Below, piece by piece: positions 1 through 10,149 of a stretch of 64,000 nt of DNA. How positions within the stretch are numbered: the first letter of the stretch is position 1; every line of letters begins with the position of its first letter. The DNA comes from an uncultured bacterium (GTDB lineage: Bacteria > Hydrothermota > Tepidihabitantia > Tepidihabitantales > DTDR01): positions 599 to 64,598 of the forward strand of contig CALHQW010000024.1 in assembly GCA_938040315.1 (NCBI GenBank), in the 5' to 3' direction. The notes under the pieces were generated by a model. It did no database searches and was not told the DNA's origin. It saw only the letters and a list, made by a program, of their open reading frames with translations. The position numbers were made by a program, and so were the translations under genes.

Positions 1-811
1 TTGCTTCATCATATTTTCCTAAATTGCTATAAATATTTCCTAATCCAAAATAAAAATCAGGAGAAAATATTATTTTTAATTCTATTTCTAATTTCACCAA
101 TTTTTGAATTATTTCTTTAATTTTCTCATACTCAGGTTTCTTTATAAATCCAATACTATACTCAGAAAATTCTGTCAAAACTTGATTAACTTCCGCTTTT
201 TTCTCTTTTGGAATTTCAGGTGGAAGGTATGATTGTTTAATCAGTAAAATTATATCGTCTTTAAGTTTGATAAGATTATCTTCTAAGATTTTTTTTAATT
301 CCTCCGTCTTTCTCCAGTCATAAGATTGATAATGTAAGTCTTTAACATCGGATAAATGTTTATCTACATCTAATTTTGGATTTGGAATTCTATGAGTATC
401 AAATTTTGATTTTATTTTCTCATCAAGATAAAGATTTTTAACATCAATCTCCGCATTTTTATCTTTCAAAACTATGATAGGCTTTCTTTTTGCAAGTAGA
501 AGTCCATATTCCAAAACAACATTCGGTCTCAAGCCATCCAATATCACTATTCCCAAAACACATTTATCCAACAATTCCAAAAGTTTTTCAAGGTTACTTT
601 CTTGGGATTTAATTGCCTCAGATAAAGTTTTTACTTCAAAATAATTTCCTATTACTTCCTTAATAATATTTATTACATGCTCAATATAATCTACATATTT
701 CTTATCCGGATGCACCACTACACATATATGTCCTTTGCTTACTTCTAATAAAGGCTCTAACTCTTTGGGAATATAAACCTCTTTTTGGATTTTTATTCTT
801 TCTTCCTTCAT
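1..811 (-). CDS. TIR-like nucleotide-binding domain + TPR repeat protein (C-terminus runs off the window start)
   Basis: Minus-strand frame is open from ATG 809-811 to the window edge. It is absent from the ORF track because no stop lies in the window. My translation reads MKEERIKIQKEVYIPKELEPLLEVSKGHICVVVHPDKKYVDY...CVLGIVILDGLRPNVVLEYGLLLAKRKPIIVLKDKN, which resembles the bacterial TIR-like (COG4271 / CAP12-type) core. The distal part ...FYFGLGNIYSNLGKYDEA is a TPR signature. Confidence 0.55.
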   Translation of the reverse strand, partial: MKEERIKIQKEVYIPKELEPLLEVSKGHICVVVHPDKKYVDYIEHVINIIKEVIGNYFEVKTLSEAIKSQESNLEKLLELLDKCVLGIVILDGLRPNVVLEYGLLLAKRKPIIVLKDKNAEIDVKNLYLDEKIKSKFDTHRIPNPKLDVDKHLSDVKDLHYQSYDWRKTEELKKILEDNLIKLKDDIILLIKQSYLPPEIPKEKKAEVNQVLTEFSEYSIGFIKKPEYEKIKEIIQKLVKLEIELKIIFSPDFYFGLGNIYSNLGKYDEA

Positions 812-818
812 CTTTTAG

Positions 819-847
819 ACTATACAAAAAAAATTTTTTTCTGTCAA
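819..847 (-). promoter_or_regulatory. sigma70-like promoter TTGACA-17-TATAGT, with the -10 ending 7 nt before the ATG (leaderless geometry)
   Basis: The reverse complement of 812-847 reads TTGACAgaaaaaaattttttttgTATAGTctaaaagATG. There is no SD. Confidence 0.45.
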
Positions 848-907
848 TTAAAAAAAAGTGGTAACCTGAACCCCTACTTTTCCGTCATATATATAAAGGA
901 GTAAAAT

Positions 908-1132
908 ATGAAATTTTACCTAACAGATGAAGAGAAAAGAAAAATAAAAAACTTAGGCATCCTAAAAACAAGCCAAGCGGCCTACTTCCTTAACGTCGAT
1001 AGAAAAACTATCATCAGACTTATTAAAAAGGGCCTACTAAAAGCAAAACGCTCTAAAACCTATAAAAAAGGGATGTTCCTTATCAAAGGCGATAACTTAA
1101 TTAAATTTGTTGAAGAATTCTTGGAAGGTTAA
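908..1132 (+). CDS. excisionase-family / MerR-like helix-turn-helix DNA-binding protein
   Basis: 74 aa. The segment LKTSQAAYFLNVDRKTIIRLIKKGLLKAKR...IKGDNLIKFVEEFL matches the excisionase-type HTH pattern. SD AAGGAG lies upstream. Confidence 0.6.
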   Translation: MKFYLTDEEKRKIKNLGILKTSQAAYFLNVDRKTIIRLIKKGLLKAKRSKTYKKGMFLIKGDNLIKFVEEFLEG

Positions 1133-1221
1133 AAATGCTCCAAAAATGTCCCAAAAATGTCCCAATCTGCCCCAAAGTGTCCCAATCTGCCCCAAAGTGT
1201 CCCCAACTGCCACAAACTGTC
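1131..1221. repeat. array of about 9 helically phased 9-11-bp direct repeats (consensus CC(C)AAANTGTC), also readable as 20-bp units CCCAAAGTGTCCCAATCTGC; iteron- or arm-site-like
   Basis: Read directly from the sequence: AAAAATGCTC CAAAAATGTC CCAAAAATGTC CCAATCTGC CCCAAAGTGTC CCAATCTGC CCCAAAGTGTC CCCAACTGC CACAAACTGTC. Confidence 0.8.
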
Positions 1222-1261
1222 CGTTTACTTTCACTCCTAAAATCACTATATTTTTCTATGT

Positions 1262-1534
1262 ATGAATGATAAAAAAATAATAAAAATTGTATGTCGAGGT
1301 TTAAGGGTAAATGCTCCTATTAAAATGATTGTGGAACTTAAGCCTGTGGAATCTTTTGACTATAAAAATTGCGTTTCCGAAATGGATTTCTTCGCCGTTA
1401 ATCTTATACAACACGCCGATATATCACTATCCGTCAGATTAATAAGAGAATTACTGCAAAGATTACCAGCAATGTTTCCTCCTGATATAAATAAAATTAT
1501 TAACGAATTCGAAGATAAAGACAACAAAGTATGA
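1262..1534 (+). CDS. hypothetical protein (mobile-element ORF)
   Basis: 90-aa ORF, co-directional with the block. Its stop overlaps the next start (ATGA at 1531-1534). No family recognised. Confidence 0.4.
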   Translation: MNDKKIIKIVCRGLRVNAPIKMIVELKPVESFDYKNCVSEMDFFAVNLIQHADISLSVRLIRELLQRLPAMFPPDINKIINEFEDKDNKV

Positions 1535-1884
1535 CTTTGAGCACCTATGGAGCACCTATGACCTTGAGCACCTTTGATATTTATAATATGAAAAGAATAA
1601 CCAGAAGAGCCCTACCCTACCCTGATATCTCCATGCCTATTATTATTAAGAAAATTAAGAAGACCGCTATCTTAAAGATATTTTATAGTTCTATAAAAAT
1701 TAGTCCGAGTTATTTTGTTAAAAGGTTTCTTTCTCTTTTTATCAATGCTTTTCTTTCCCTTTTTAATAATAAGATAGAAAATAAGATTGTTATTGAAAAA
1801 TCAAGGAGTTTTAAGTTTTTAAGATTGGGCGGAAGTTTTTGGAAAGAAAAAAAGGAGTTAAACTATGCCATTAAAACCACCTGA
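1531..1884 (+). CDS. hypothetical protein, possibly membrane-associated
   Basis: 117-aa ORF. The N-terminus carries a duplicated MTLST(Y/F) peptide that comes from a DNA duplication. Composition is low-complexity. Confidence 0.3.
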   Translation: MTLSTYGAPMTLSTFDIYNMKRITRRALPYPDISMPIIIKKIKKTAILKIFYSSIKISPSYFVKRFLSLFINAFLSLFNNKIENKIVIEKSRSFKFLRLGGSFWKEKKELNYAIKTT

Positions 1885-2245
1885 TAGAAGAATAAATAAA
1901 TGGGATATCAAAGTAGATGCTGATGTAATCAAGCAGACAATCCTAAGACATAAAAATATAATGAAAACTTATTACACCGCTGCCGCTGAATACTTCTATG
2001 ATAAAGAAGTAAGAACAAAGGCAATCTTAGATGAAAACGGAGTTTTACCCTCTCTATATCCAATGTATTATAACTTCACAAGGGAAATCGGAAGAAAAAT
2101 CTATTATGTCGGACTTGGTGGCGCAACCCTTCTATCCGAAGCATTAATAATAAAAGCAAAATGGACCTCTCGCGGACTTGATGAAACTATCCTTAATTTA
2201 ATTCTCGTAAATGTTTTTGGTATTACTCCACCTGCTGGACCATAA
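1865..2245 (+). CDS. hypothetical 126-aa protein, paralog A of a tandem pair
   Basis: SD AAGGAG lies upstream. Shares the motifs YPxYYxxTREIxR, KWxxxGL and NVFG(I/L)xPP with the next ORF. Confidence 0.55.
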   Translation: MPLKPPDRRINKWDIKVDADVIKQTILRHKNIMKTYYTAAAEYFYDKEVRTKAILDENGVLPSLYPMYYNFTREIGRKIYYVGLGGATLLSEALIIKAKWTSRGLDETILNLILVNVFGITPPAGP

Positions 2246-2269
2246 ATTTAATTAAAAAGGAGGTTTAAA

Positions 2270-2650
2270 ATGGCAAGAGATGCTTATTATACAGTAAATA
2301 AGTATGCTAATAAGATGGCAGGTGCCCATTTAGGACCTGCCTTCTCTAATCAGCATACTTTAATGGTTGTAAATTATGCTACTTACTACGGCGAAATCTG
2401 CTCCCTTATCGACCAAACAAAAGATATCCTCCACGGACAAGGCATTAGAATATCCCAATATCCCTATTATTTAACCTACACAAGAGAAATATACCGACAT
2501 TGGAAAAGATACTCCGGCCGAACTTTATACGCAATAAGAGACGCAATAAGAGATAAATGGCAAGCCTGGGGACTCTCTCTTACTATAATGAAACTCATCG
2601 ACCAAAACGTCTTCGGACTTCCACCTACTACTCCACCTCTTACACCTTAA
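2270..2650 (+). CDS. hypothetical 126-aa protein, paralog B of a tandem pair
   Basis: SD AAGGAGG lies upstream. Same length and same conserved motifs as 1865-2245. Confidence 0.6.
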   Translation: MARDAYYTVNKYANKMAGAHLGPAFSNQHTLMVVNYATYYGEICSLIDQTKDILHGQGIRISQYPYYLTYTREIYRHWKRYSGRTLYAIRDAIRDKWQAWGLSLTIMKLIDQNVFGLPPTTPPLTP

Positions 2651-2669
2651 TTTAAAGGAGAAGTTAAAT

Positions 2670-2750
2670 GGGATGGGCCGAAAATTCCTTAATAGACGTA
2701 AAAACCCCTTCTCTACCTCTTACAAGGAAGCGGGATTTTCCGCCCATCCC
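2670..2750 (+). other. long-range stem-loop (15 of 16 bp), GGGATGGGCcGAAAAT / ATTTTCcGCCCATCCC, with a ~49-nt loop
   Basis: Arms at 2670-2685 and 2735-2750, read directly. The arms are GC-rich within an AT-rich block. The element overlaps a possible 46-aa ORF at 2668-2808 that has an AAAGGAG SD. Confidence 0.4.
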
Positions 2751-2804
2751 GCACAAGGTTAGGACCTTGGGACACCTTAAAATTTTTATTAAAAGGAGGA
2801 AAAA

Positions 2805-3224
2805 ATGAAAATACTAAAAATAAAAAAAGTAAATAATAAAAAATTATTTAAAGAAAAATTAAAATCTTCCCTATCCAAAAACTCTCAAAAAGACTTAAAA
2901 AATCTTATCGATAAATACTATAAAATAAAAACCCTCGCCGAACATCTCGAAGGACAAAGACAAGCATTAAGAACCTTAATTATCTATCTAATGGAAGAGA
3001 AAAATATAAAATCCCTTGATACCGGTAAATATCTATGCGAATTATACACAATGGAACAAACAAGACTCGATATCGAAGAGATGAAAAGAACCTTACCAAA
3101 AGAACAACTTGAACTATTCGAAATTAAATTACAAACAAAGGCATTAAGAGTAATACCAAAAAACGAAGAAGAAGCAGTAAAAGATGTTATTAATAAATAC
3201 CCAAAAATATTTAAAAGGGGATAA
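2805..3224 (+). CDS. hypothetical Lys/Glu-rich, probably coiled-coil protein
   Basis: 139-aa ORF with SD AAGGAGG upstream. No family recognised. Confidence 0.5.
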   Translation: MKILKIKKVNNKKLFKEKLKSSLSKNSQKDLKNLIDKYYKIKTLAEHLEGQRQALRTLIIYLMEEKNIKSLDTGKYLCELYTMEQTRLDIEEMKRTLPKEQLELFEIKLQTKALRVIPKNEEEAVKDVINKYPKIFKRG

Positions 3225-3227
3225 AAA

Positions 3228-3425
3228 ATGAAAACAAAAAATCTATCTTTTACCTGTTTTATAACCTACGACGAAACACCCGGCTTTCCCTGTATCTATG
3301 AATTGAAAACAAAATTAGTAAGAAACCAATTATTTGTTAATATCTCAATGTCCTTTGATGTTCCCTTTATAATCAAAAGAAGAATAACTGTCGGCTTTTC
3401 TGTTAAATTAGTGCGTGCAAAATAA
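3228..3425 (+). CDS. hypothetical protein
   Basis: 65-aa ORF with a weak SD (AAGGGG), co-directional with the block. Confidence 0.35.
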   Translation: MKTKNLSFTCFITYDETPGFPCIYELKTKLVRNQLFVNISMSFDVPFIIKRRITVGFSVKLVRAK

Positions 3426-3428
3426 TAT

Positions 3429-3605
3429 ATGATTTATAAATTCTTCATCTCCCTTTCTTTAATAATTGTCTTTCTTATTCTGAAATTAAAAGGAATAAAT
3501 TCAATAACCGATACAATAGCGATGGCGATTATTGTATTCTGGCTTGGCTGGGAGTTTTCTAAATATAACCGATATAAAAGAGATAAAATAAATAATGATA
3601 AATAA
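3429..3605 (+). CDS. holin-like small membrane protein (58 aa; below the ORF-track cutoff)
   Basis: My translation is MIYKFFISLSLIIVFLILKLKGINSITDTIAMAIIVFWLGWEFSKYNRYKRDKINNDK. It has two hydrophobic helices and a basic tail. Its end overlaps the start of the M15 peptidase gene. Confidence 0.4.
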   Translation: MIYKFFISLSLIIVFLILKLKGINSITDTIAMAIIVFWLGWEFSKYNRYKRDKINNDK

Positions 3606-3963
3606 TTGGGAATTAGTAAAGAAGTATTTTAAGAGGGAAGAGTTTATCTGTCCTTGTTGTGGCAAGGAAGAGATGGTTTTTGAGTTTATATTAAAATTAT
3701 ACAAAGCGCGCGAGATTGCAAAAGTTCCCTTTATAATTCTTTCTGGTTATCGTTGTAAAAAGCATAATCAAGAGGTTGGCGGAGTTATTAATTCTTATCA
3801 TCTAAAAGGAGAGGCTTCGGATATAAAATGCGAGGATCCCTTTACCCGTTATATGATGTTAAACTCCTTTTTTCAAGCAGGTTTATATGGAATAATAATA
3901 TACAAAAACTTTATCCATGTAGATAATCGCAAGAATCGTATTTTGCTTTTGAAGTGCTTTTGA
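3595..3963 (+). CDS. peptidase M15A (YcbK / D-Ala-D-Ala carboxypeptidase-like) endolysin
   Basis: The motifs FICPCCG...SGYRCKKHNQEVGGVINSYHLKGEASD...FIHVDNR match the zinc-binding M15_3 pattern. Confidence 0.8.
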   Translation: MINNWELVKKYFKREEFICPCCGKEEMVFEFILKLYKAREIAKVPFIILSGYRCKKHNQEVGGVINSYHLKGEASDIKCEDPFTRYMMLNSFFQAGLYGIIIYKNFIHVDNRKNRILLLKCF

Positions 3964-3978
3964 AATGCTTTTAAATTA

Positions 3979-4689
3979 ATGGATAGTCTAAGGCAGGTTA
4001 TCTCCAAATTTGAGTATGAGAATATGAAAAAAGAGTTTAGCCGGCATCTTGCTAATTTATATCGCCAAATGAGAAGAAAAGAAAGAAAAGTTTTTTATCA
4101 TATTGGTTATCGAAACATGGCTGAAGATGGCTTCTGTTATGAATTTTACAAAAACATTGCCTTTCACACAGACGTTCACAGAAACACCATTTCTAAATAT
4201 GTAAATTTTTTTATTGAAAATAAATTATTAGAAAGAAAAATAATGAAAGCAAAATATCGTTATCGTAAAGGTCTGGTTCTAACTAAATTAGGATTATGTT
4301 TTTATATTTTTATTAATAGACTAAATATTTATTTATATAACAAATTTAAAGAAAATAAAAATTATAAAGAGATAGATTTTTATGATTTTATATATAAATT
4401 TATATTAAATATTTTCTATTTATTTAATAATATCTTAGGTAGTATGCACAATGAGATGCCCAAGGTTAGCAATTTTGATAGTGGAAAATGTGGAAATTTA
4501 GGCTTGGAGGGTAGAGATTTAGTTTTCGGAGATCTAAATTTAGGTTTTAAGGAGTTAAAAAAGCCACCTTCTTATAATGAACATCAAAAAATATGGGAAA
4601 AAAAGCGCGAACAATTTATAAAGTTATACAGAGCGGGTTTCAAACTATCCGAGGATATTATAAAGGAGTATAAATTAGATAAACAATGA
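3979..4689 (+). CDS. hypothetical protein with a putative winged-helix DNA-binding region (regulator or replication-initiator-like)
   Basis: 236 aa. The segment NIAFHTDVHRNTISKYVNFFIENKLLERK is HTH-like. The C-terminal GNLG...GFKELKK tail is duplicated downstream. Confidence 0.4.
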   Translation: MDSLRQVISKFEYENMKKEFSRHLANLYRQMRRKERKVFYHIGYRNMAEDGFCYEFYKNIAFHTDVHRNTISKYVNFFIENKLLERKIMKAKYRYRKGLVLTKLGLCFYIFINRLNIYLYNKFKENKNYKEIDFYDFIYKFILNIFYLFNNILGSMHNEMPKVSNFDSGKCGNLGLEGRDLVFGDLNLGFKELKKPPSYNEHQKIWEKKREQFIKLYRAGFKLSEDIIKEYKLDKQ

Positions 4690-4756: not shown

Positions 4757-5122
4757 ATGAGAAAAAAAATGGTTAAAATTAGAGAAGAATGGAAGGACAA
4801 AATGGAAGAAAAAGTTGTGGAGATTATTAAAGAAGAACTTAAAAAAAGGGGAATTAAAATTATCAAAATTATTCTCTTTGGTTCAAGGGCAAGGGGCAAT
4901 TTTAAAGTTGATAGTGATTGGGACTTTTTTGTTATTATTGACAAAACATTAAATTTCAATGAAAAATGGGATATAATTGATGAAATCAAAATAAAATTAG
5001 CCCAAAAAGGAATTCTCAATGATATTATTTTAAAATCGCCAAAAGAAATAGAAGAGGCAAAGGATGATGTTGGTAGGATTACTTATTATGCTTTAAGAGA
5101 AGGGATACATTATGAGAAATGA
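4757..5122 (+). CDS. MNT-type nucleotidyltransferase (antitoxin of a HEPN/MNT module)
   Basis: The segment LFGSRARGNFKVDSDWDFFVI is the GSxxRG...DxD Pol-beta-type NTase motif. The gene overlaps the downstream HEPN gene. Confidence 0.8.
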   Translation: MRKKMVKIREEWKDKMEEKVVEIIKEELKKRGIKIIKIILFGSRARGNFKVDSDWDFFVIIDKTLNFNEKWDIIDEIKIKLAQKGILNDIILKSPKEIEEAKDDVGRITYYALREGIHYEK

Positions 5123-5516
5123 AAAAACTATAAAAAATTGGATTTTTTTAGCAAATGGAGATTTAAAAACTGCCCAAGATGAACTGAAATCGGAAGATCC
5201 TTTTACCAACTCAATATGTTTTCATGCTCAACAATGTGTTGAAAAATATCTTAAGGCTTATCTTACTTTAGTTGGTGAACCCTTTGGCAAGACCCATGAC
5301 ATCGCACTATTAATTGAATTGTGTAAAAAATACGATACTAAATTTGATGAACTATATCAATTAAAGGCTCATAAATTAAATAGGTATGCAGTGGAGTTAA
5401 GATATCCTGAAGATTTTTACATTCCAACAATTGAGGAGGCAAAAGAAAGTATTGAGATTGCCAAAAAAGTTAAGGAATTTGTGTTAAAAGAAATTGAAAA
5501 ATACGGCATTATATGA
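5112..5516 (+). CDS. HEPN domain protein (toxin of a HEPN/MNT module)
   Basis: 134 aa, helical. The segment LNRYAVELRYPED matches the HEPN pattern. Pairing with an upstream NTase is the canonical arrangement. Confidence 0.8.
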   Translation: MRNEKTIKNWIFLANGDLKTAQDELKSEDPFTNSICFHAQQCVEKYLKAYLTLVGEPFGKTHDIALLIELCKKYDTKFDELYQLKAHKLNRYAVELRYPEDFYIPTIEEAKESIEIAKKVKEFVLKEIEKYGII

Positions 5517-5957: not shown

Positions 5958-7088
5958 TTAAAGAGAGAAGTTATAACCAAAATATAGTTTAAAAGAAAAT
6001 CCTTTGGCATTAAGTAATATCCCTTTATAATACTCTTGGATTATTAGAAAATCAAATTTTTTAATATTTATTCCTAAACCAAGTCCAATTTCATAAGAGA
6101 AATTTTCTAAATAAATATCTTTACTAACCGGCAAATAAAGAGTCAAAGAATTAATAATTGATAAAAAATTAAAGGGTTGGTAATTTAATTTAGAATAAAA
6201 TTTAAAGAATTCTTTTATTGCCCAAGAGAGACCGGGTTCAATTTTAAAATAATCTTTTATTTTATTCTCTAAACCGAAATTAATCTCTGTTGGCAAAGGA
6301 TTATTAACAAATCCCTTTGTCTCTTTTTCTTCTTTATTAAAGGAATAATAATTGCCCGCACTTATCTTGTTAAAATTTAAAGAATCAATTATTAAAGTAA
6401 TCTTGCCAATCCGATTATCTTTCTGCCAAAGAATTCTGTTTCCCAAATTTTCAATTATAATTTTAAAACCAAATTTTTCATTCCTTTTTCTTCCGAAAGC
6501 AATATCAAAACCAAAACCTCGACCACCAGAACTTTTTTGATAATTTATTTCATTATAAAAATTGAGGGAATTCTGGGTAGTCAAAAGATTTAAATAATTA
6601 TTTTCAGTTTTCAAATAATAATAGCCTTCTAAATAACTTATTCCCAAACCTAAGATCCAATCTCTTTTAAGAGAAAAATTAAAACTATTTTTTATTTGAC
6701 TAAAGGCAAAAACTTCTCCTTTGCTCTCTTTTGATTGATAAATCTGATTTAATCTATTACCAAAAAAAAGTAAATCAAAAATCTCTTTCTCAATCCTTCC
6801 TTTACTTCGGAAATTAAAAGAAATAGCCAAATTCCAAAAATGATAATAGAGAGATAAAAAAGATAAATTAACTTCACCAGACAATTTTAGACCCTCTTGG
6901 GGAATAATCTTCAAAATAGTTTCTTTATCCTTTTTATCTAAATATTTTCCATTATAATAATTATAATCTTTACCACTAAAAGCATTATTATAAAAATTGA
7001 GATTAACACCAAAAATCTGATAATAAACTTTATTTTCCGAAAATAAACTTATAAAATTAAAAAAAGTTAAAATTAAATAAATTGCCAT
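5958..7088 (-). CDS. predicted outer-membrane beta-barrel protein (family not recognised)
   Basis: 376 aa with a hydrophobic N-terminus, alternating aromatic/Gly beta-strand pattern, and a C-terminal ...YFGYNFSL. It lies 2 nt downstream of the lipoprotein gene. Confidence 0.5.
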   Translation of the reverse strand: MAIYLILTFFNFISLFSENKVYYQIFGVNLNFYNNAFSGKDYNYYNGKYLDKKDKETILKIIPQEGLKLSGEVNLSFLSLYYHFWNLAISFNFRSKGRIEKEIFDLLFFGNRLNQIYQSKESKGEVFAFSQIKNSFNFSLKRDWILGLGISYLEGYYYLKTENNYLNLLTTQNSLNFYNEINYQKSSGGRGFGFDIAFGRKRNEKFGFKIIIENLGNRILWQKDNRIGKITLIIDSLNFNKISAGNYYSFNKEEKETKGFVNNPLPTEINFGLENKIKDYFKIEPGLSWAIKEFFKFYSKLNYQPFNFLSIINSLTLYLPVSKDIYLENFSYEIGLGLGINIKKFDFLIIQEYYKGILLNAKGFSFKLYFGYNFSL

Positions 7089-7090
7089 AA

Positions 7091-9001
7091 TTATTTTTTA
7101 ATTGATTTTACTATCTCCTTTGTTTTTACTTTTAATATCGCATAAGTATTAAAACTTAAAAAATCATTAGGTCTTAAAAGAACGGTATCACTTTCTGGTA
7201 AATAAATCTTCAAAATAGTTTTCAATCCTTCTTTTTTAAAGATTTCTAACTCTCTTTCATTCATTTCTAAAACTATTTCACTTTCCTTTTCTTTTTCACA
7301 ATAACCCTTTTTTGAAACTATGCCACTTTGTAAAACAAAAGGAAGAACTACCGAATCTCCTCTTTCTGATTTTATAACTATTGAGCCATCAAAACCAATT
7401 GGAAAATGGTTGATAACTTCCACAACCAATTCGCCCCCTACTAAATTTTTATTAATCTTTTCTTTTTCGCTTTCTTTTAGATAAATTTCTTTCTCGTAAG
7501 CGATGAAGGTATCTTTACTAAAAGAAAATTTTAGTGGTATCTCAACCGAAGCATTCACTAAAATAAAATCTTTTTCTTCCAGTTCTCCTTTACCAATTAT
7601 TCTTCCCAAATAATTAAATTCCAAAACTTTCGGACCATTATTTATTAAATTAGTAATATCAATTTTTTCGTTTATTCTTTGGATAGGTTGACCATTTCTT
7701 GAAGGCAGTTCAATTTCTTTATAAAGAGAAGAGACTTCTTTATTACGGTTAACACTTTTACCAGTGAGAAAAAATTTAATCGGTACTTCTATATCATAAA
7801 TAAAATCTAAAAACATTTCTACCTTTTCAAATTTTATTCCCTTGGGATTTCCTAAGAGATCTAATATTAAAGAATCTTTTTTATTCAAAAAATAGAAGGG
7901 TGATAAAAAGGCACCATCAATTTTCTTAAACTTTAAATCTCTTAATAATCCACTAAAAGAAAGATAATCCTCTTTTCTAATATTGAAAAAATTCTCTGTA
8001 TCCTTAATTTGGGCATTAATTTCTATTGGCAAAAGAAACCCTTTCTTATCAATAGAATTTTGTTTAATAATTTTCCCTTCTAAGGAGATAGCAATCCTTT
8101 TATTTCCGTAGGGATTAATATCAAAATTATTTTCATAATTTATTTCTCCAATTTTGAGAGAGATTAATAGCGGAAAGGAAAATTGATTTATAAAATCTAA
8201 ATCCAAAAAACCTTCCTTTATTTCTCCATAATTTAAATCAAAATCAATTGATGGATTAAAATAGTGGGTAGAAGTATAATTTAAAACTGAATTTTTAAAT
8301 TTTAATTCGCCCTCAATTAATTTAATATTTGTGAATTTAAATATTAATTTTAAATAATCCCTTTTTCTTACTAATAAAGATTCATCAGTGGAAATCTCGT
8401 AAACCAATAAGAGATTAATCGGTGAAGAAAGAAATATATTCTCAATTATTTCCGACAACTCCTTCTGAGAATTTGGTTCTAAAATTCCGAGATTAAAGTT
8501 AAAATTACTTATATTAATTTTAAAGTATCTAAAATTTATTAATGAATGGTTTTCAATATTTAAAGCAAAAAAAGATCTTTCAATGAGACCATAATGAAAA
8601 TTATCTAAATTGATTACTTTCTCTAACTCCTTTTGTAAATTTATTGGTGGTAAAATGATAAAACTATCAGGAATGGTAACTCCCAAAATCTCTTCAATAT
8701 TAATGATTATTTCTTTAGAAAAGGTATCGCAAATTTCAAAATAATTAAAATAATAAGTATTATTAACTCGATCGCTACTAAAATTAATTTTTGTTATTGG
8801 AAAAAAGGTATCAAAACTATTTTGATAAAAGAAATTAAAGATTGAATCGGAATTAAAAGTAAAATAATGGGAATCTAAAAAAGAAAAGATGGTAAAATCT
8901 TTTTTTAATAAGGGAATTGTTATTTCGGTATCCCATTCCGGAAGTTTTGGTTTTTCTAAGCAAGCCAAAAAGAAGACTCCTAAAAAGAATAACTTTTTCA
9001 C
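7091..9001 (-). CDS. predicted lipoprotein, 636 aa, unknown function
   Basis: GTG start with AGGAGGTG SD. The signal MKKLFFLGVFFLAC carries a lipobox-like cysteine. Confidence 0.55.
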   Translation of the reverse strand: MKKLFFLGVFFLACLEKPKLPEWDTEITIPLLKKDFTIFSFLDSHYFTFNSDSIFNFFYQNSFDTFFPITKINFSSDRVNNTYYFNYFEICDTFSKEIIINIEEILGVTIPDSFIILPPINLQKELEKVINLDNFHYGLIERSFFALNIENHSLINFRYFKINISNFNFNLGILEPNSQKELSEIIENIFLSSPINLLLVYEISTDESLLVRKRDYLKLIFKFTNIKLIEGELKFKNSVLNYTSTHYFNPSIDFDLNYGEIKEGFLDLDFINQFSFPLLISLKIGEINYENNFDINPYGNKRIAISLEGKIIKQNSIDKKGFLLPIEINAQIKDTENFFNIRKEDYLSFSGLLRDLKFKKIDGAFLSPFYFLNKKDSLILDLLGNPKGIKFEKVEMFLDFIYDIEVPIKFFLTGKSVNRNKEVSSLYKEIELPSRNGQPIQRINEKIDITNLINNGPKVLEFNYLGRIIGKGELEEKDFILVNASVEIPLKFSFSKDTFIAYEKEIYLKESEKEKINKNLVGGELVVEVINHFPIGFDGSIVIKSERGDSVVLPFVLQSGIVSKKGYCEKEKESEIVLEMNERELEIFKKEGLKTILKIYLPESDTVLLRPNDFLSFNTYAILKVKTKEIVKSIKK

Positions 9002-9027
9002 ACCACACCTCCTTTATTTATAAAAAA

Positions 9028-9320
9028 AGGGCTACCGGTACCCTGGGTCCGTTCGTCTCGCCTCTAAAATATTATTAAGAGGTGGCATCCTCTATTTTTT
9101 GAACGGTTCACTCAGTAGTACCAGCGCCCTTTTTCTTCATCTCCTCCTCCCCTCTAAATTAACCGGGGGCCTAAAAATGAGGACTGGGCTATGAACTCAA
9201 AAGGGAGGTTAAATCTTAGACCCCCGAATCTTATTTGGGATGTAGTGCTGCCATCGGAACACCCAAACGCCTAAACTTTTATCCTTCCTCCGAAACCGAA
9301 AATTCGCACTACATCCCAAA
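9028..9320. ncRNA. GC-enriched, highly structured RNA-like element of unknown class (strand unresolved)
   Basis: Three long helices were read directly: 9029-9054 with 9101-9129, 9164-9174 with 9216-9226, and a perfect 15-bp helix 9234-9248 with 9306-9320. There is also a CCTCT/AGAGG/CCTCT alternative-pairing triplet at 9061-9093. The first helix is flanked by A7 and T5. Confidence 0.5.
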
Positions 9321-9646
9321 CAATGTGGTAAGGAGGTGAAAATGCGAGCAATCTTATCTTTTATTTTTTATCTTTACCCACTTTTCAAAGAACCTTTCTA
9401 TTTCTTTCTATAAAAGAAAGTTCAAAAACTATGCCAAAAGAAAAATTAAAAACTTTAAAAAAACATTGATTTTTAAAGGTTTTATTAAAGTCTCTATAAT
9501 TATCTAAAATAAAATTCTTCTATAAAAGTGCGACAAAATAAACTTAAGATAAACAATTGTTATTTAAATCACATAATTTCAATAATTTATAAAAAAATGT
9601 GACACTCTTTAATTTTTAAGATTTATATAAAATAAAGGTTTATATC

Positions 9647-9674
9647 TTGACTTTTATTTTAAATATATTATAAT
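9647..9674 (+). promoter_or_regulatory. sigma70-like promoter TTGACT-16-TATAAT, with the -10 ending 7 nt before the rimP ATG (leaderless geometry)
   Basis: Read directly. There is no SD between the -10 box and ATG 9682. Confidence 0.5.
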
Positions 9675-9681
9675 TATTTCT

Positions 9682-10149
9682 ATGGAAAAATTACCAGAAG
9701 AGGTTTATAATTTAATTTTTAAAACGGTGAATGAAAAGGGATTAGAACTTTATGATGTGGAATATGATGGAAAAAATTTGAGAGTTTATATTGATATGCC
9801 TGGTGGAGTAACAATTAATATCTGCGAAGAAGTATCTAATATATTATCATTAAAATTAGATGCTTTGGATTTAATACCCCATTCTTATATTTTAGAAGTC
9901 TCTTCTCCTGGTGTGGAAAGAAAGTTAAAAAATGCCACACATTTTAAAAAAGTGATTGGCAAAAAGATAATGGTCCAAAAAGATAATGACTACGTTTATG
10001 GTGAACTTTTAAATGCCGATGACCAACTAATTACTTTAAAAACTTTAGAAAGTTCTTATTTAAAACCAGGAGAAATTGTGAATATTAACTATTCAGAAAT
10101 AAAAAAAGCCGAAGTAAAAGTTACTACTAAGGAGTTATTTAAAAAATGA
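9682..10149 (+). CDS. rimP: ribosome maturation factor RimP
   Basis: 155 aa with the LEVSSPGVERKL motif. Lies upstream of nusA, which is the conserved order. Confidence 0.85.
   Translation: MEKLPEEVYNLIFKTVNEKGLELYDVEYDGKNLRVYIDMPGGVTINICEEVSNILSLKLDALDLIPHSYILEVSSPGVERKLKNATHFKKVIGKKIMVQKDNDYVYGELLNADDQLITLKTLESSYLKPGEIVNINYSEIKKAEVKVTTKELFKK

Follow-up and report, generated by a model that had tools for sequence, protein, structure and literature searches.

A conserved minus-strand RNA divergent from rimP-nusA-infB in candidate division WOR-3, probably the product of a stand-alone non-coding RNA gene

What occupies the long spacer between a predicted lipoprotein gene and the divergent rimP-nusA-infB genes of an uncultured bacterium, a regulatory leader of the former or a gene in its own right? 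The 64,000-nucleotide (nt) stretch analysed here (contig CALHQW010000024.1, positions 599 to 64,598; hereafter the window) holds a spacer of 680 nt between an open reading frame (ORF) of 636 amino acids (aa; 7091-9001, minus strand, GTG start) and rimP (9682-10149, plus strand), which is followed by nusA and infB on its side of the spacer. The first-pass annotation of this DNA had pointed to a GC-enriched block in this AT-rich spacer, and the composition bears this out: in 100-nt windows the region 9000-9349 has 42-49% GC, as against 15-22% in the flanking spacer and 31% in the whole window. The block had been placed at 9006-9338; its core is real, but these limits were too narrow, since conservation reaches ~9410 and the promoter elements reach 9436. 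We propose that the block is probably the core of a stand-alone, highly structured non-coding RNA (ncRNA) gene on the minus strand, extending from ~9410 to 9022 and belonging to an uncatalogued family of candidate division WOR-3. A stand-alone RNA had been named earlier only as an alternative to a leader; it is the reading that we favour, because the RNA persists where no gene follows.

The evidence comes from homologous regions collected around orthologues of the 636-aa gene and around rimP, a check that had been suggested at the outset and which revealed conservation of both sequence and structure, with compensatory changes. The closest genome, recovered by a NusA-based scan of a genome collection, is a metagenome-assembled genome of candidate division WOR-3 (L001; NusA 91% identical), in which the element lies at the same place; L001 was the useful result of that scan, and 79 irrelevant alphaproteobacterial loci were reused as negative controls. 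Relatives of the 636-aa protein number only eight among 5.8 billion proteins (57-100% identity), and all of their contigs keep rimP-nusA-infB, the element, the lipoprotein gene and a 376-aa gene. A metagenome scan with a 23-nt core pattern, which is too strict for the large forms described below, gave three extra copies, all from the same clade. The small forms compared here are eight distinct sequences, i.e., the window and seven others. Beyond this clade NusA identity drops from 86-95% directly to 55% or less in other WOR-3 bacteria, and in lineages with 52-55% identical NusA nhmmer profiles (E 3e-10 to 5e-21) detected large forms of 650-740 nt (Table 1). In every homologue of either size class the element lies upstream of rimP-nusA-infB on the opposite strand. 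The match is reciprocal: the large-form profile finds the window at 9211-9008 on the minus strand (E = 1.7e-11) and also the 5' module region of other small forms (e.g., L083 3619-3691), and beyond the homologues it has no further match in 1.22 Mb of fetched loci. Viral contigs gave no match to the large-form core, two other WOR-3 lineages (L093/L094 and L097) have no such RNA near nusA, and BLAST of the element against the 64-kb window returned only the element itself. Judging from these searches, the family is lineage-restricted, being found so far only in some uncultivated WOR-3 bacteria. In passing, we noted that the record P0013, whose NusA is 91% identical to that of the window, carries the NCBI label 'Candidatus Micrarchaeia archaeon' and is almost certainly a mis-binned WOR-3 contig.

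Comparative analysis of these sequences provides the main argument for an RNA. The three helices A, B and C, which had been proposed from the window sequence, are all present at the positions assigned to them, and they are kept by compensatory changes in the seven other small forms and in five larger homologues. In the alignment of the eight small forms 98% of the pair cells are standard and 11 pairs have substitutions in both partners; this was never equalled in 500 column shuffles, and sliding the 3' partners by 1-3 columns left 43-53% of cells paired. For the large forms RNAalifold predicted 112 pairs from four sequences, 14 of them with compensatory changes. Compensatory substitutions thus keep the base pairs beyond the controls, as is expected of a structured non-coding RNA gene. 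DNA identity between the window and L087 amounts to 76% in the RNA, 78.5% in nusA, 80% in rimP, 69.5% in the lipoprotein gene and 48% in the remaining spacer; between the size classes the flanking proteins are only 25-28% identical and the RNA blocks are almost unchanged.

The strand had been left unresolved, the base-pair asymmetry having appeared mixed in the window; the wider comparison now assigns the RNA to the minus strand. The minus-strand sequence folds at -122.5 kcal/mol (z = -5.85 against dinucleotide shuffles) and the plus strand at -107.6 kcal/mol (z = -4.76), and in 12 of 12 full-length homologues the minus sense folds better, by 5-31 kcal/mol. Conserved pairs of helices A, B and C include G.U or U.G (e.g., alignment columns 133/185 and 231/327), which become A.C mismatches on the other strand. 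Since the G.U pairs and the fold energies agree across the 12 full-length sequences, we place the RNA on the minus strand, and the plus-strand promoter-like pair that had been suggested at 8997-9024 is therefore irrelevant.

Read from 5' to 3', the small form consists of the 5' module (9394-9372), the segment CUCGCAUUUUCACCUCCUUACC (9348-9321), helix C, helix B, the purine tract (9154-9141), helix A and a run of seven U residues. Helix C and the helix B domain are together closed by a long-range helix, which is CCUCCU/GGAGGA in the window and UCAUCGGGUA/UACUCGAUGA plus AUCACCUCCU/AGGAGGUGAU in L095; in L103 its outer part, GGCCUGCCGGC/GCCGGCAGGCC, is equivalent to the UCAUCGGGUA/UACUCGAUGA of L095, and the CCUCC/purine pairing was not seen in that sequence. 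Four pairs of helix C have both sides changed among the small forms (97% of cells paired), with double changes such as GUAGUGC/GCACUAC to GCGAUGC/GCAUCGC; its apex varies freely in sequence and length, and in L095, L098, L099 and L102 the arms have wholly different sequences that are still complementary. The loop of helix B holds CCUCCC (9203-9208) and an inner hairpin UGAG...CUCA (9178-9199) that carries UAGCCCA. Among the small forms helix B varies by C-G/U.G and U.G/U-A changes only, and between the size classes G-C replaces a U-A pair and CUUGGG/CCCAAG replaces UGAG/CUCA as the inner stem. Helix A folds independently into the same architecture in all 12 homologues, with five variants of the outer stem, in which seven pairs have both sides changed among the small forms and more changes occur in the large ones; MAFFT sets its bulge in varying registers, and the middle of this helix was compared by hand. 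The large forms possess, in addition, a 5' hairpin domain with another copy of the GUUCUUU module (nhmmer pairs the single module of the small form with the second copy of the large forms), a conserved helix C apex, an inserted hairpin GCGGACAC...GUGUCCGC and one further hairpin before helix A. In L098 we also observed a small hairpin that occurs twice, as AUCCGCCUUAGGCGGAC and AUCCGCCUCAGGCGGAC (~4470-4490 and 4245-4265, minus reading), one copy being inserted in the RNA, where the long-range helix strand and GACUCGAUG flank it, and the second coming just past the terminator; these repeats may be a tiny repeated element or the terminator of the convergent gene.

Table 1. Positions of the RNA, its parts, the associated promoter elements and the downstream genes (window coordinates unless a locus is named), with the elements of the large forms.
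Feature	Position	Strand	Remarks
Whole predicted RNA, small form, ~390 nt	9022..9410	minus	from conservation and promoter position; predicted 5' end; 3' limit at the U-tract after helix A
Sigma-54-type -24/-12 promoter TGGCATAGTTTTTGA (TGGCAT-N6-TGA)	9422..9436	minus	GG and GA 10 nt apart
Proximal upstream site TGTCGCA, candidate activator (enhancer) site	9529..9535	minus	99 nt upstream of the -24 TGG
Distal upstream site TGTCACA, candidate activator (enhancer) site	9598..9604	minus	168 nt upstream of the -24 TGG
Conserved 5' module GGUUCUUUGAAAAGUGGGUAAAG	9372..9394	minus	from alignments; one copy in the small form, two in the large
CUCGCAUUUUCACCUCCUUACCACAUUG, 5' strand of the long-range helix	9321..9348	minus	includes the 'anti-SD' CACCUCCUU at 9330-9338; invariant in AT-rich lineages
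Helix C hairpin	9234..9320	minus	arms 9306-9320 and 9234-9248, perfect 15 bp; variable apex 9249-9305; compensatory changes
Helix B domain	9165..9225	minus	arms 9214-9225 and 9165-9177; conservation within the family is highest here
Purine tract GAGGGGAGGAGGAG, 3' strand of the long-range helix	9141..9154	minus	RNAalifold pairs CCUCCU with GGAGGA
Helix A, long irregular hairpin	9028..9130	minus	outer stem, CUG/CAG, CCGUUC/GAACGG, AUGCC/GGCG, apical loop
U7 tract	9022..9028	minus	intrinsic-terminator-like 3' end with the GGGC/GCCC base of helix A
Downstream genes, outside the RNA family	5958..9014	minus	SD 9006-9014; 636-aa lipoprotein gene 7091-9001; 376-aa outer-membrane-type gene 5958-7088
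Large-form RNA	L095/L096 6300-7072	opposite rimP	nhmmer
Large-form RNA	L098 4265-5049	opposite rimP	nhmmer
Large-form RNA	L099/L101 4367-5153	opposite rimP	nhmmer
Large-form RNA	L102, cut by contig end	opposite rimP	nhmmer
Large-form RNA	L103/L104 (WOR-3 JGI_Cruoil_03_51_56) ~2425-3075	opposite rimP	nhmmer
Sigma-54-type element TGGCACGGTAAATGC	L095
Sigma-54-type element TGGCACGGTCTATGC	L098
Sigma-54-type element TGGCACATAATGTGC	L099
Sigma-54-type element TGGCACAAGGTGTGC	L102
Sigma-54-type element TGGCACAGCCGGTGC	L103

Upstream of the RNA lie sequences that resemble a sigma-54 promoter, the consensus of which has GG at -24 and GC at -12 in exact spacing (TGGCAC-N5-TTGC). Such an element occupies the homologous position in 13 of 13 sequences, ~90 nt upstream of the putative anti-Shine-Dalgarno (anti-SD) motif and with exact GG-N10-G(C/A/T) spacing; the -24 and -12 blocks are invariant, the five bases in between vary, and the five large forms are near-consensus. 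A relaxed version of the promoter pattern has only 5 occurrences in the window, both strands counted. From this element the RNA is predicted to start near 9410. Activator (enhancer) sites of sigma-54 promoters are expected roughly 80-200 nt upstream. In 12 of 12 AT-rich sequences a proximal TGTCGCA precedes the -24 TGG by 98-102 nt; this 7-mer has just two occurrences on both strands of the window. A second site, (T/G/C/A)GTC(G/A)CA, lies 66-70 nt farther upstream in every one of these sequences, and L103 has its pair of sites 86 and 152 nt upstream of the promoter. This layout fits sigma-54 activator sites, to which we infer that an activator binds, and the RNA is probably under sigma-54/activator control. 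A sigma-70 promoter TTGAAA...TAAGAT was also considered for the RNA and was discarded, its spacer ranging from 18 to 28 nt among relatives. Between the two upstream sites, the block ATTATTGAAATTATGTGATTTAAATAA (9540-9597) is conserved in the small-form clade and has a looser TTGAT-containing counterpart in L095 and L098; possibly it is the site of a bending protein between the activator sites. At the other end of the RNA, the suggestion that helix A followed by U7 acts as a terminator agrees with a terminator-scan match at 9044-9028 on the minus strand and with a run of 4-7 U residues after helix A in all AT-rich homologues.

The RNA might instead be a cis-acting 5' leader (riboswitch, attenuator or protein-binding) of the lipoprotein/DUF5723 operon, with a conditional terminator and a Shine-Dalgarno (SD) sequence masked by CACCUCCUU, in which case the copies without a gene would be relics or would have a second role. 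We regard this explanation as possible but unlikely. In its favour, the SD follows the U-tract by 7 nt in the window and by 12 nt in L095, with no space for a separate promoter, and a lipoprotein or DUF5723 gene lies downstream in the window clade, in L095/L096 and in L103/L104. The L095 genes (a 674-aa gene and a DUF5723 gene; L095 3010-6315, minus strand) are orthologues of those encoding the 636-aa and 376-aa proteins of the window (25% identity, E = 9e-63, and 28%, E = 9e-33, respectively), and L103 has a single 640-aa protein (459-2381, minus strand) whose residues 444-592 match DUF5723. The 376-aa protein of the window is itself below Pfam detection; in the literature, DUF5723 proteins appear only in lists of outer-membrane proteins and vesicles. 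With a gap of only 7 nt between U-tract and SD in the window, read-through is the likely source of lipoprotein-operon expression. In L098 and in L099/L101, however, the lipoprotein/DUF5723 pair is absent, and what comes next is a convergent gene, for an M50 peptidase in L098 and for a transglutaminase-domain protein in L099/L101; between the RNA and these genes there is no real ORF, only small non-conserved ORFs of the mechanical kind. Their RNAs retain every domain, the promoter, the upstream sites and the terminator, and their helix C arms differ from those of L095 by many compensated substitutions. Since compensated helices, promoter and terminator are kept in these lineages, selection acts on the RNA even where it has no gene to regulate, and not every member of the family sits in the 5' untranslated region of a regulable gene. 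It is above all this that speaks against a pure leader or riboswitch, and hence against the reading preferred in the first-pass annotation, i.e., a riboswitch- or attenuator-like leader of the 636-aa gene. Moreover, a multi-domain RNA of 650-740 nt is well above the size of known riboswitches, and no Rfam riboswitch or T-box model matched.

Several short motifs had been taken as signs of such a leader. The 9-nt inverted repeat that had been said to bracket the block is present, but its copy at 9006-9014 is the SD of the 636-aa gene and, because it is missing from homologues without a downstream gene, falls outside the element. The other copy, CACCUCCUU (9338-9330), does not vary among the AT-rich lineages, whether or not an SD lies downstream, and corresponds to UUUCCUUUACC in L103. 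Among the small forms the 5' segment can pair with either of two partners about equally well, the purine tract (-19 to -22 kcal/mol) or the lipoprotein-gene SD (-17 to -23 kcal/mol), and in L081 a change of A to G in the SD retains a U.G pair; both observations would suit a leader. The proposed role as anti-SD for the lipoprotein gene therefore holds insofar as the pairing is possible, but the motif is one strand of an internal long-range helix and is not conserved in L103 despite the DUF5723 gene downstream. Pairing with the SD is possible, on the sequences compared, only in read-through transcripts of the lineages that keep the gene, and would be no feature of the family. The AGAGG/CCUCU switch suggested within helix A is likewise not conserved, a different apical hairpin being present in the large forms and the motif being absent in L103, and the suggested CCTCCC/GGGAGG pseudoknot was abandoned since L099 and L103 have no partner tract. 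No conserved terminator/antiterminator alternative was seen in the family.

We consider it improbable that the block mainly controls the divergent rimP-nusA-infB genes, be it as DNA, as a shared regulatory region or through a divergent transcript. The position divergent from rimP is kept in every carrier lineage, down to 52-55% NusA identity, and the distal TGTCACA lies ~40 nt from the rimP -35 box, so that one regulator might touch both divergent promoters. The compensatory changes and the G.U asymmetry, by contrast, reflect selection on RNA structure and not on DNA sites; the body of the RNA stays clear of rimP, at a distance of 270-650 nt, and other WOR-3 lineages have rimP without the element. 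In addition, rimP has its own near-consensus sigma-70 promoter, TTGACT-16-TATAAT (9647-9674, plus strand), 8 nt upstream of the rimP start and conserved in L001.

More remote still, and in our view very unlikely, is that the RNA belongs to a known family (RNase P RNA, tmRNA, 6S, SRP RNA, OLE, GOLLD, ROOL, HEARO or raiA) but has diverged so far that covariance models miss it. Both the size, 390-740 nt, and the GC-rich island amid AT-rich DNA would be typical of these families, and AUAGGGCAGG and AAGUCC in L095 show short chance resemblances to the RNase P sequence. The Rfam scan that had been recommended nevertheless identified no known family, with T-box, cobalamin and the rimP leader included besides those just listed: Rfam 15 gave no match at gathering score in the 64-kb window, and permissive searches (E up to 10 on the 1-kb slice 8800-9800 with the small form, up to 5 on the large forms L095 and L099) returned only microRNA and small RNA (sRNA) noise far below threshold. 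The RNA class is thus, as had been supposed, new to Rfam, which is empty for both size classes. ARAGORN found no tRNA or tmRNA in the window, and the RNA has no tRNA-like end and no P4-type conserved strands. Neither the two-fold size gap between sister lineages, the 3' terminator hairpin and the sigma-54-type promoter, nor the absence of the RNA near nusA in L093/L094 and L097 fits a known family, and no description of a WOR-3 ncRNA was found in the searchable literature.

That the block is no functional RNA at all, but a gene in decay, a gene for a small protein or what is left of a mobile element with inverted repeats, is scarcely credible: 66-71 aa ORFs are called over it in three public contigs and a 9-nt inverted repeat surrounds it, but the ORFs vary among close relatives in strand, frame and length (plus strand, 17, 27, 66 and 68 aa; minus strand, 8-71 aa). 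Moreover, just two of 5.8 billion proteins make up their 'protein family', indels do not come in multiples of three, the window has one copy of the element and viral contigs have none, and one repeat arm is an SD. Individual coding candidates were examined and rejected: the plus-strand mini-ORF at 9343-9414 is shifted in frame by a 5-nt indel in L001; the plus-strand ORF from ATGAACTCAAAAGGG has 27 aa in the window, 17 aa in L001 and 66 and 68 aa in L087 and L089; and minus-strand ORFs from GGAGAUG and GGAUGCC span 7 to 71 codons, neither length nor frame being kept. The mis-called antisense ORF, searched against the protein database, had just those two family members. A miniature inverted-repeat transposable element or other repeat element was rejected as well, there being a single copy in the window and the 3' 'repeat' being the SD of the next gene. 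The public gene calls over the RNA (L087 3605-3805, minus; L089 3602-3808, minus; L084 3862-4077, plus; P0009, P0010) describe 'hypothetical proteins' of 66-71 aa and look like annotation artefacts from a GC-rich RNA gene.

Several observations weigh against a stand-alone, sigma-54-driven RNA gene. The -12 element of the window clade is weak, being TGA or TGT in five sequences and TGC in two, and a motif search for an RpoN box or the GAFTGA motif found neither in the window or the fetched loci, to which that search was confined. A search for sigma-54 in WOR-3 found nothing in the searchable literature. L103 has no U-run after helix A. A lipoprotein/DUF5723 gene directly follows on the same strand in three of the five deep lineages, so that the RNA may ancestrally have acted in cis; likewise, the synteny with rimP is kept in every case, and genomic context cannot separate a link to rimP from a link to the lipoprotein operon or from simple inheritance. 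The compensatory changes are often shared by descent, the L087/L089/L091 group contributing most of the double changes among the small forms, and the sampling is of limited diversity, with two deep clades plus L103 only.

Taken with these reservations, the stand-alone RNA gene would work as follows. Transcription would start from the sigma-54-type -24/-12 promoter, activated from the two TGTC(G/A)CA sites ~100 and 168 nt upstream, and the transcript would end at helix A plus the U-tract. Acting alone, the RNA would most likely offer a protein or another RNA a folded scaffold rather than sense a ligand as a leader does. The lipoprotein/DUF5723 operon, without room for a promoter of its own, would probably be expressed by read-through of a leaky terminator, and in such read-through transcripts the 5' CACCUCCUU could pair with either the internal purine tract or the operon SD. 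We speculate further, and only tentatively, that this is a new large RNA class of part of WOR-3, induced through a sigma-54 activator and working with the translation or 30S-assembly machinery; on balance we would rather expect this full proposal not to hold. The link to translation or 30S assembly is suggested because of the fixed partnership with rimP-nusA-infB and the displayed CCUCC motifs. The (A)UCACCUCCUUA motif copies the 3' tail of 16S rRNA, in its E. coli sequence, and a second CCUCC motif lies in the universally conserved loop of helix B. By acting as a decoy or scaffold, the RNA could thus engage a factor, or mRNA sequences, whose usual partner is the 16S tail; a ribozyme or the core of a ribonucleoprotein (RNP) is the alternative, and the natural 390-nt version would be the minimal functional core. 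Mimicry of the 16S 3' tail as a universal feature of the family was considered separately and is weakened, L103 having UUUCCUUUACC.

Sigma-54-dependent sRNAs are known, among them GlmY, Vibrio Qrr1-5 and Pseudomonas NrsZ. Like these, the WOR-3 RNA is an ncRNA gene with a -24/-12 promoter, activator sites at least ~100 nt upstream and an end at an intrinsic terminator, the sigma-54 dependence being in our case predicted from sequence; unlike these simple base-pairing or decoy sRNAs of 100-230 nt, it has 390-740 nt and at least 6-9 conserved helices. It shares with OLE, GOLLD, ROOL, raiA and the GC-rich intergenic candidates of the Breaker laboratory (PMC11109978), large bacterial ncRNAs whose functions are unknown or were found only recently, a large, multi-helix and lineage-restricted nature, a GC-rich island, covariation and a size exceeding that of riboswitches. 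It differs from OLE, GOLLD, ROOL and raiA in having no sequence or structure match to them and in its phylum, WOR-3, and its own features within this company are the sigma-54-type promoter with upstream sites, the two size classes and the fixed site divergent from rimP-nusA-infB. The RNA is a member of neither the large-ncRNA group nor the group of sigma-54 sRNAs. In the window clade it resembles riboswitch or attenuator leaders and leader-derived trans-acting sRNAs, as it lies directly upstream of an operon, with a terminator-like hairpin before the SD and a CCUCC that could mask this SD; in contrast to riboswitch leaders, it persists without a downstream gene in two lineages and has 2-4 times the size of a leader. 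The rimP leader (Rfam RF01770) occupies, like our RNA, the intergenic region upstream of rimP-nusA-infB, but the WOR-3 RNA is on the opposite strand and has no match to that model, and rimP's own promoter lies downstream of the RNA.

Elsewhere in the window we noted features unconnected with the RNA. On the plus strand at 4757-5516, a nucleotidyltransferase (Polbeta/NTP_transf_2, 121 aa) and a HEPN protein (134 aa) overlap by 10 nt, in the usual layout of an MNT-HEPN toxin-antitoxin pair. The region 1262-4689 (plus strand) has the look of a phage or mobile-element remnant, with small ORFs on the same strand that lack Pfam matches plus an M15 peptidase (3595-3963); it includes tandem 126-aa paralogues (1865-2245 and 2270-2650, plus strand), both ending in ...NVFG.(T/P)PP..., and at 2601-2775 there is an island of 45% GC.

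Large conserved RNAs without a known function are rare in bacteria, and earlier examples turned out to be ribozymes, RNP scaffolds or RNA cages; the RNA described here comes from a phylum without cultured members. Its 650-740 nt and ~390 nt versions form a natural deletion series that shows which domains are dispensable, and the sigma-54-type promoter with its two conserved sites gives a handle for testing under what condition the RNA is induced and by which activator. The finding also corrects public annotation, in which hypothetical proteins have been assigned to parts of the RNA. Finally, its neighbours, genes of 30S maturation and translation initiation on one side and often an outer-membrane lipoprotein/DUF5723 operon on the other, give two concrete hypotheses as to what this RNA may do in WOR-3 bacteria.

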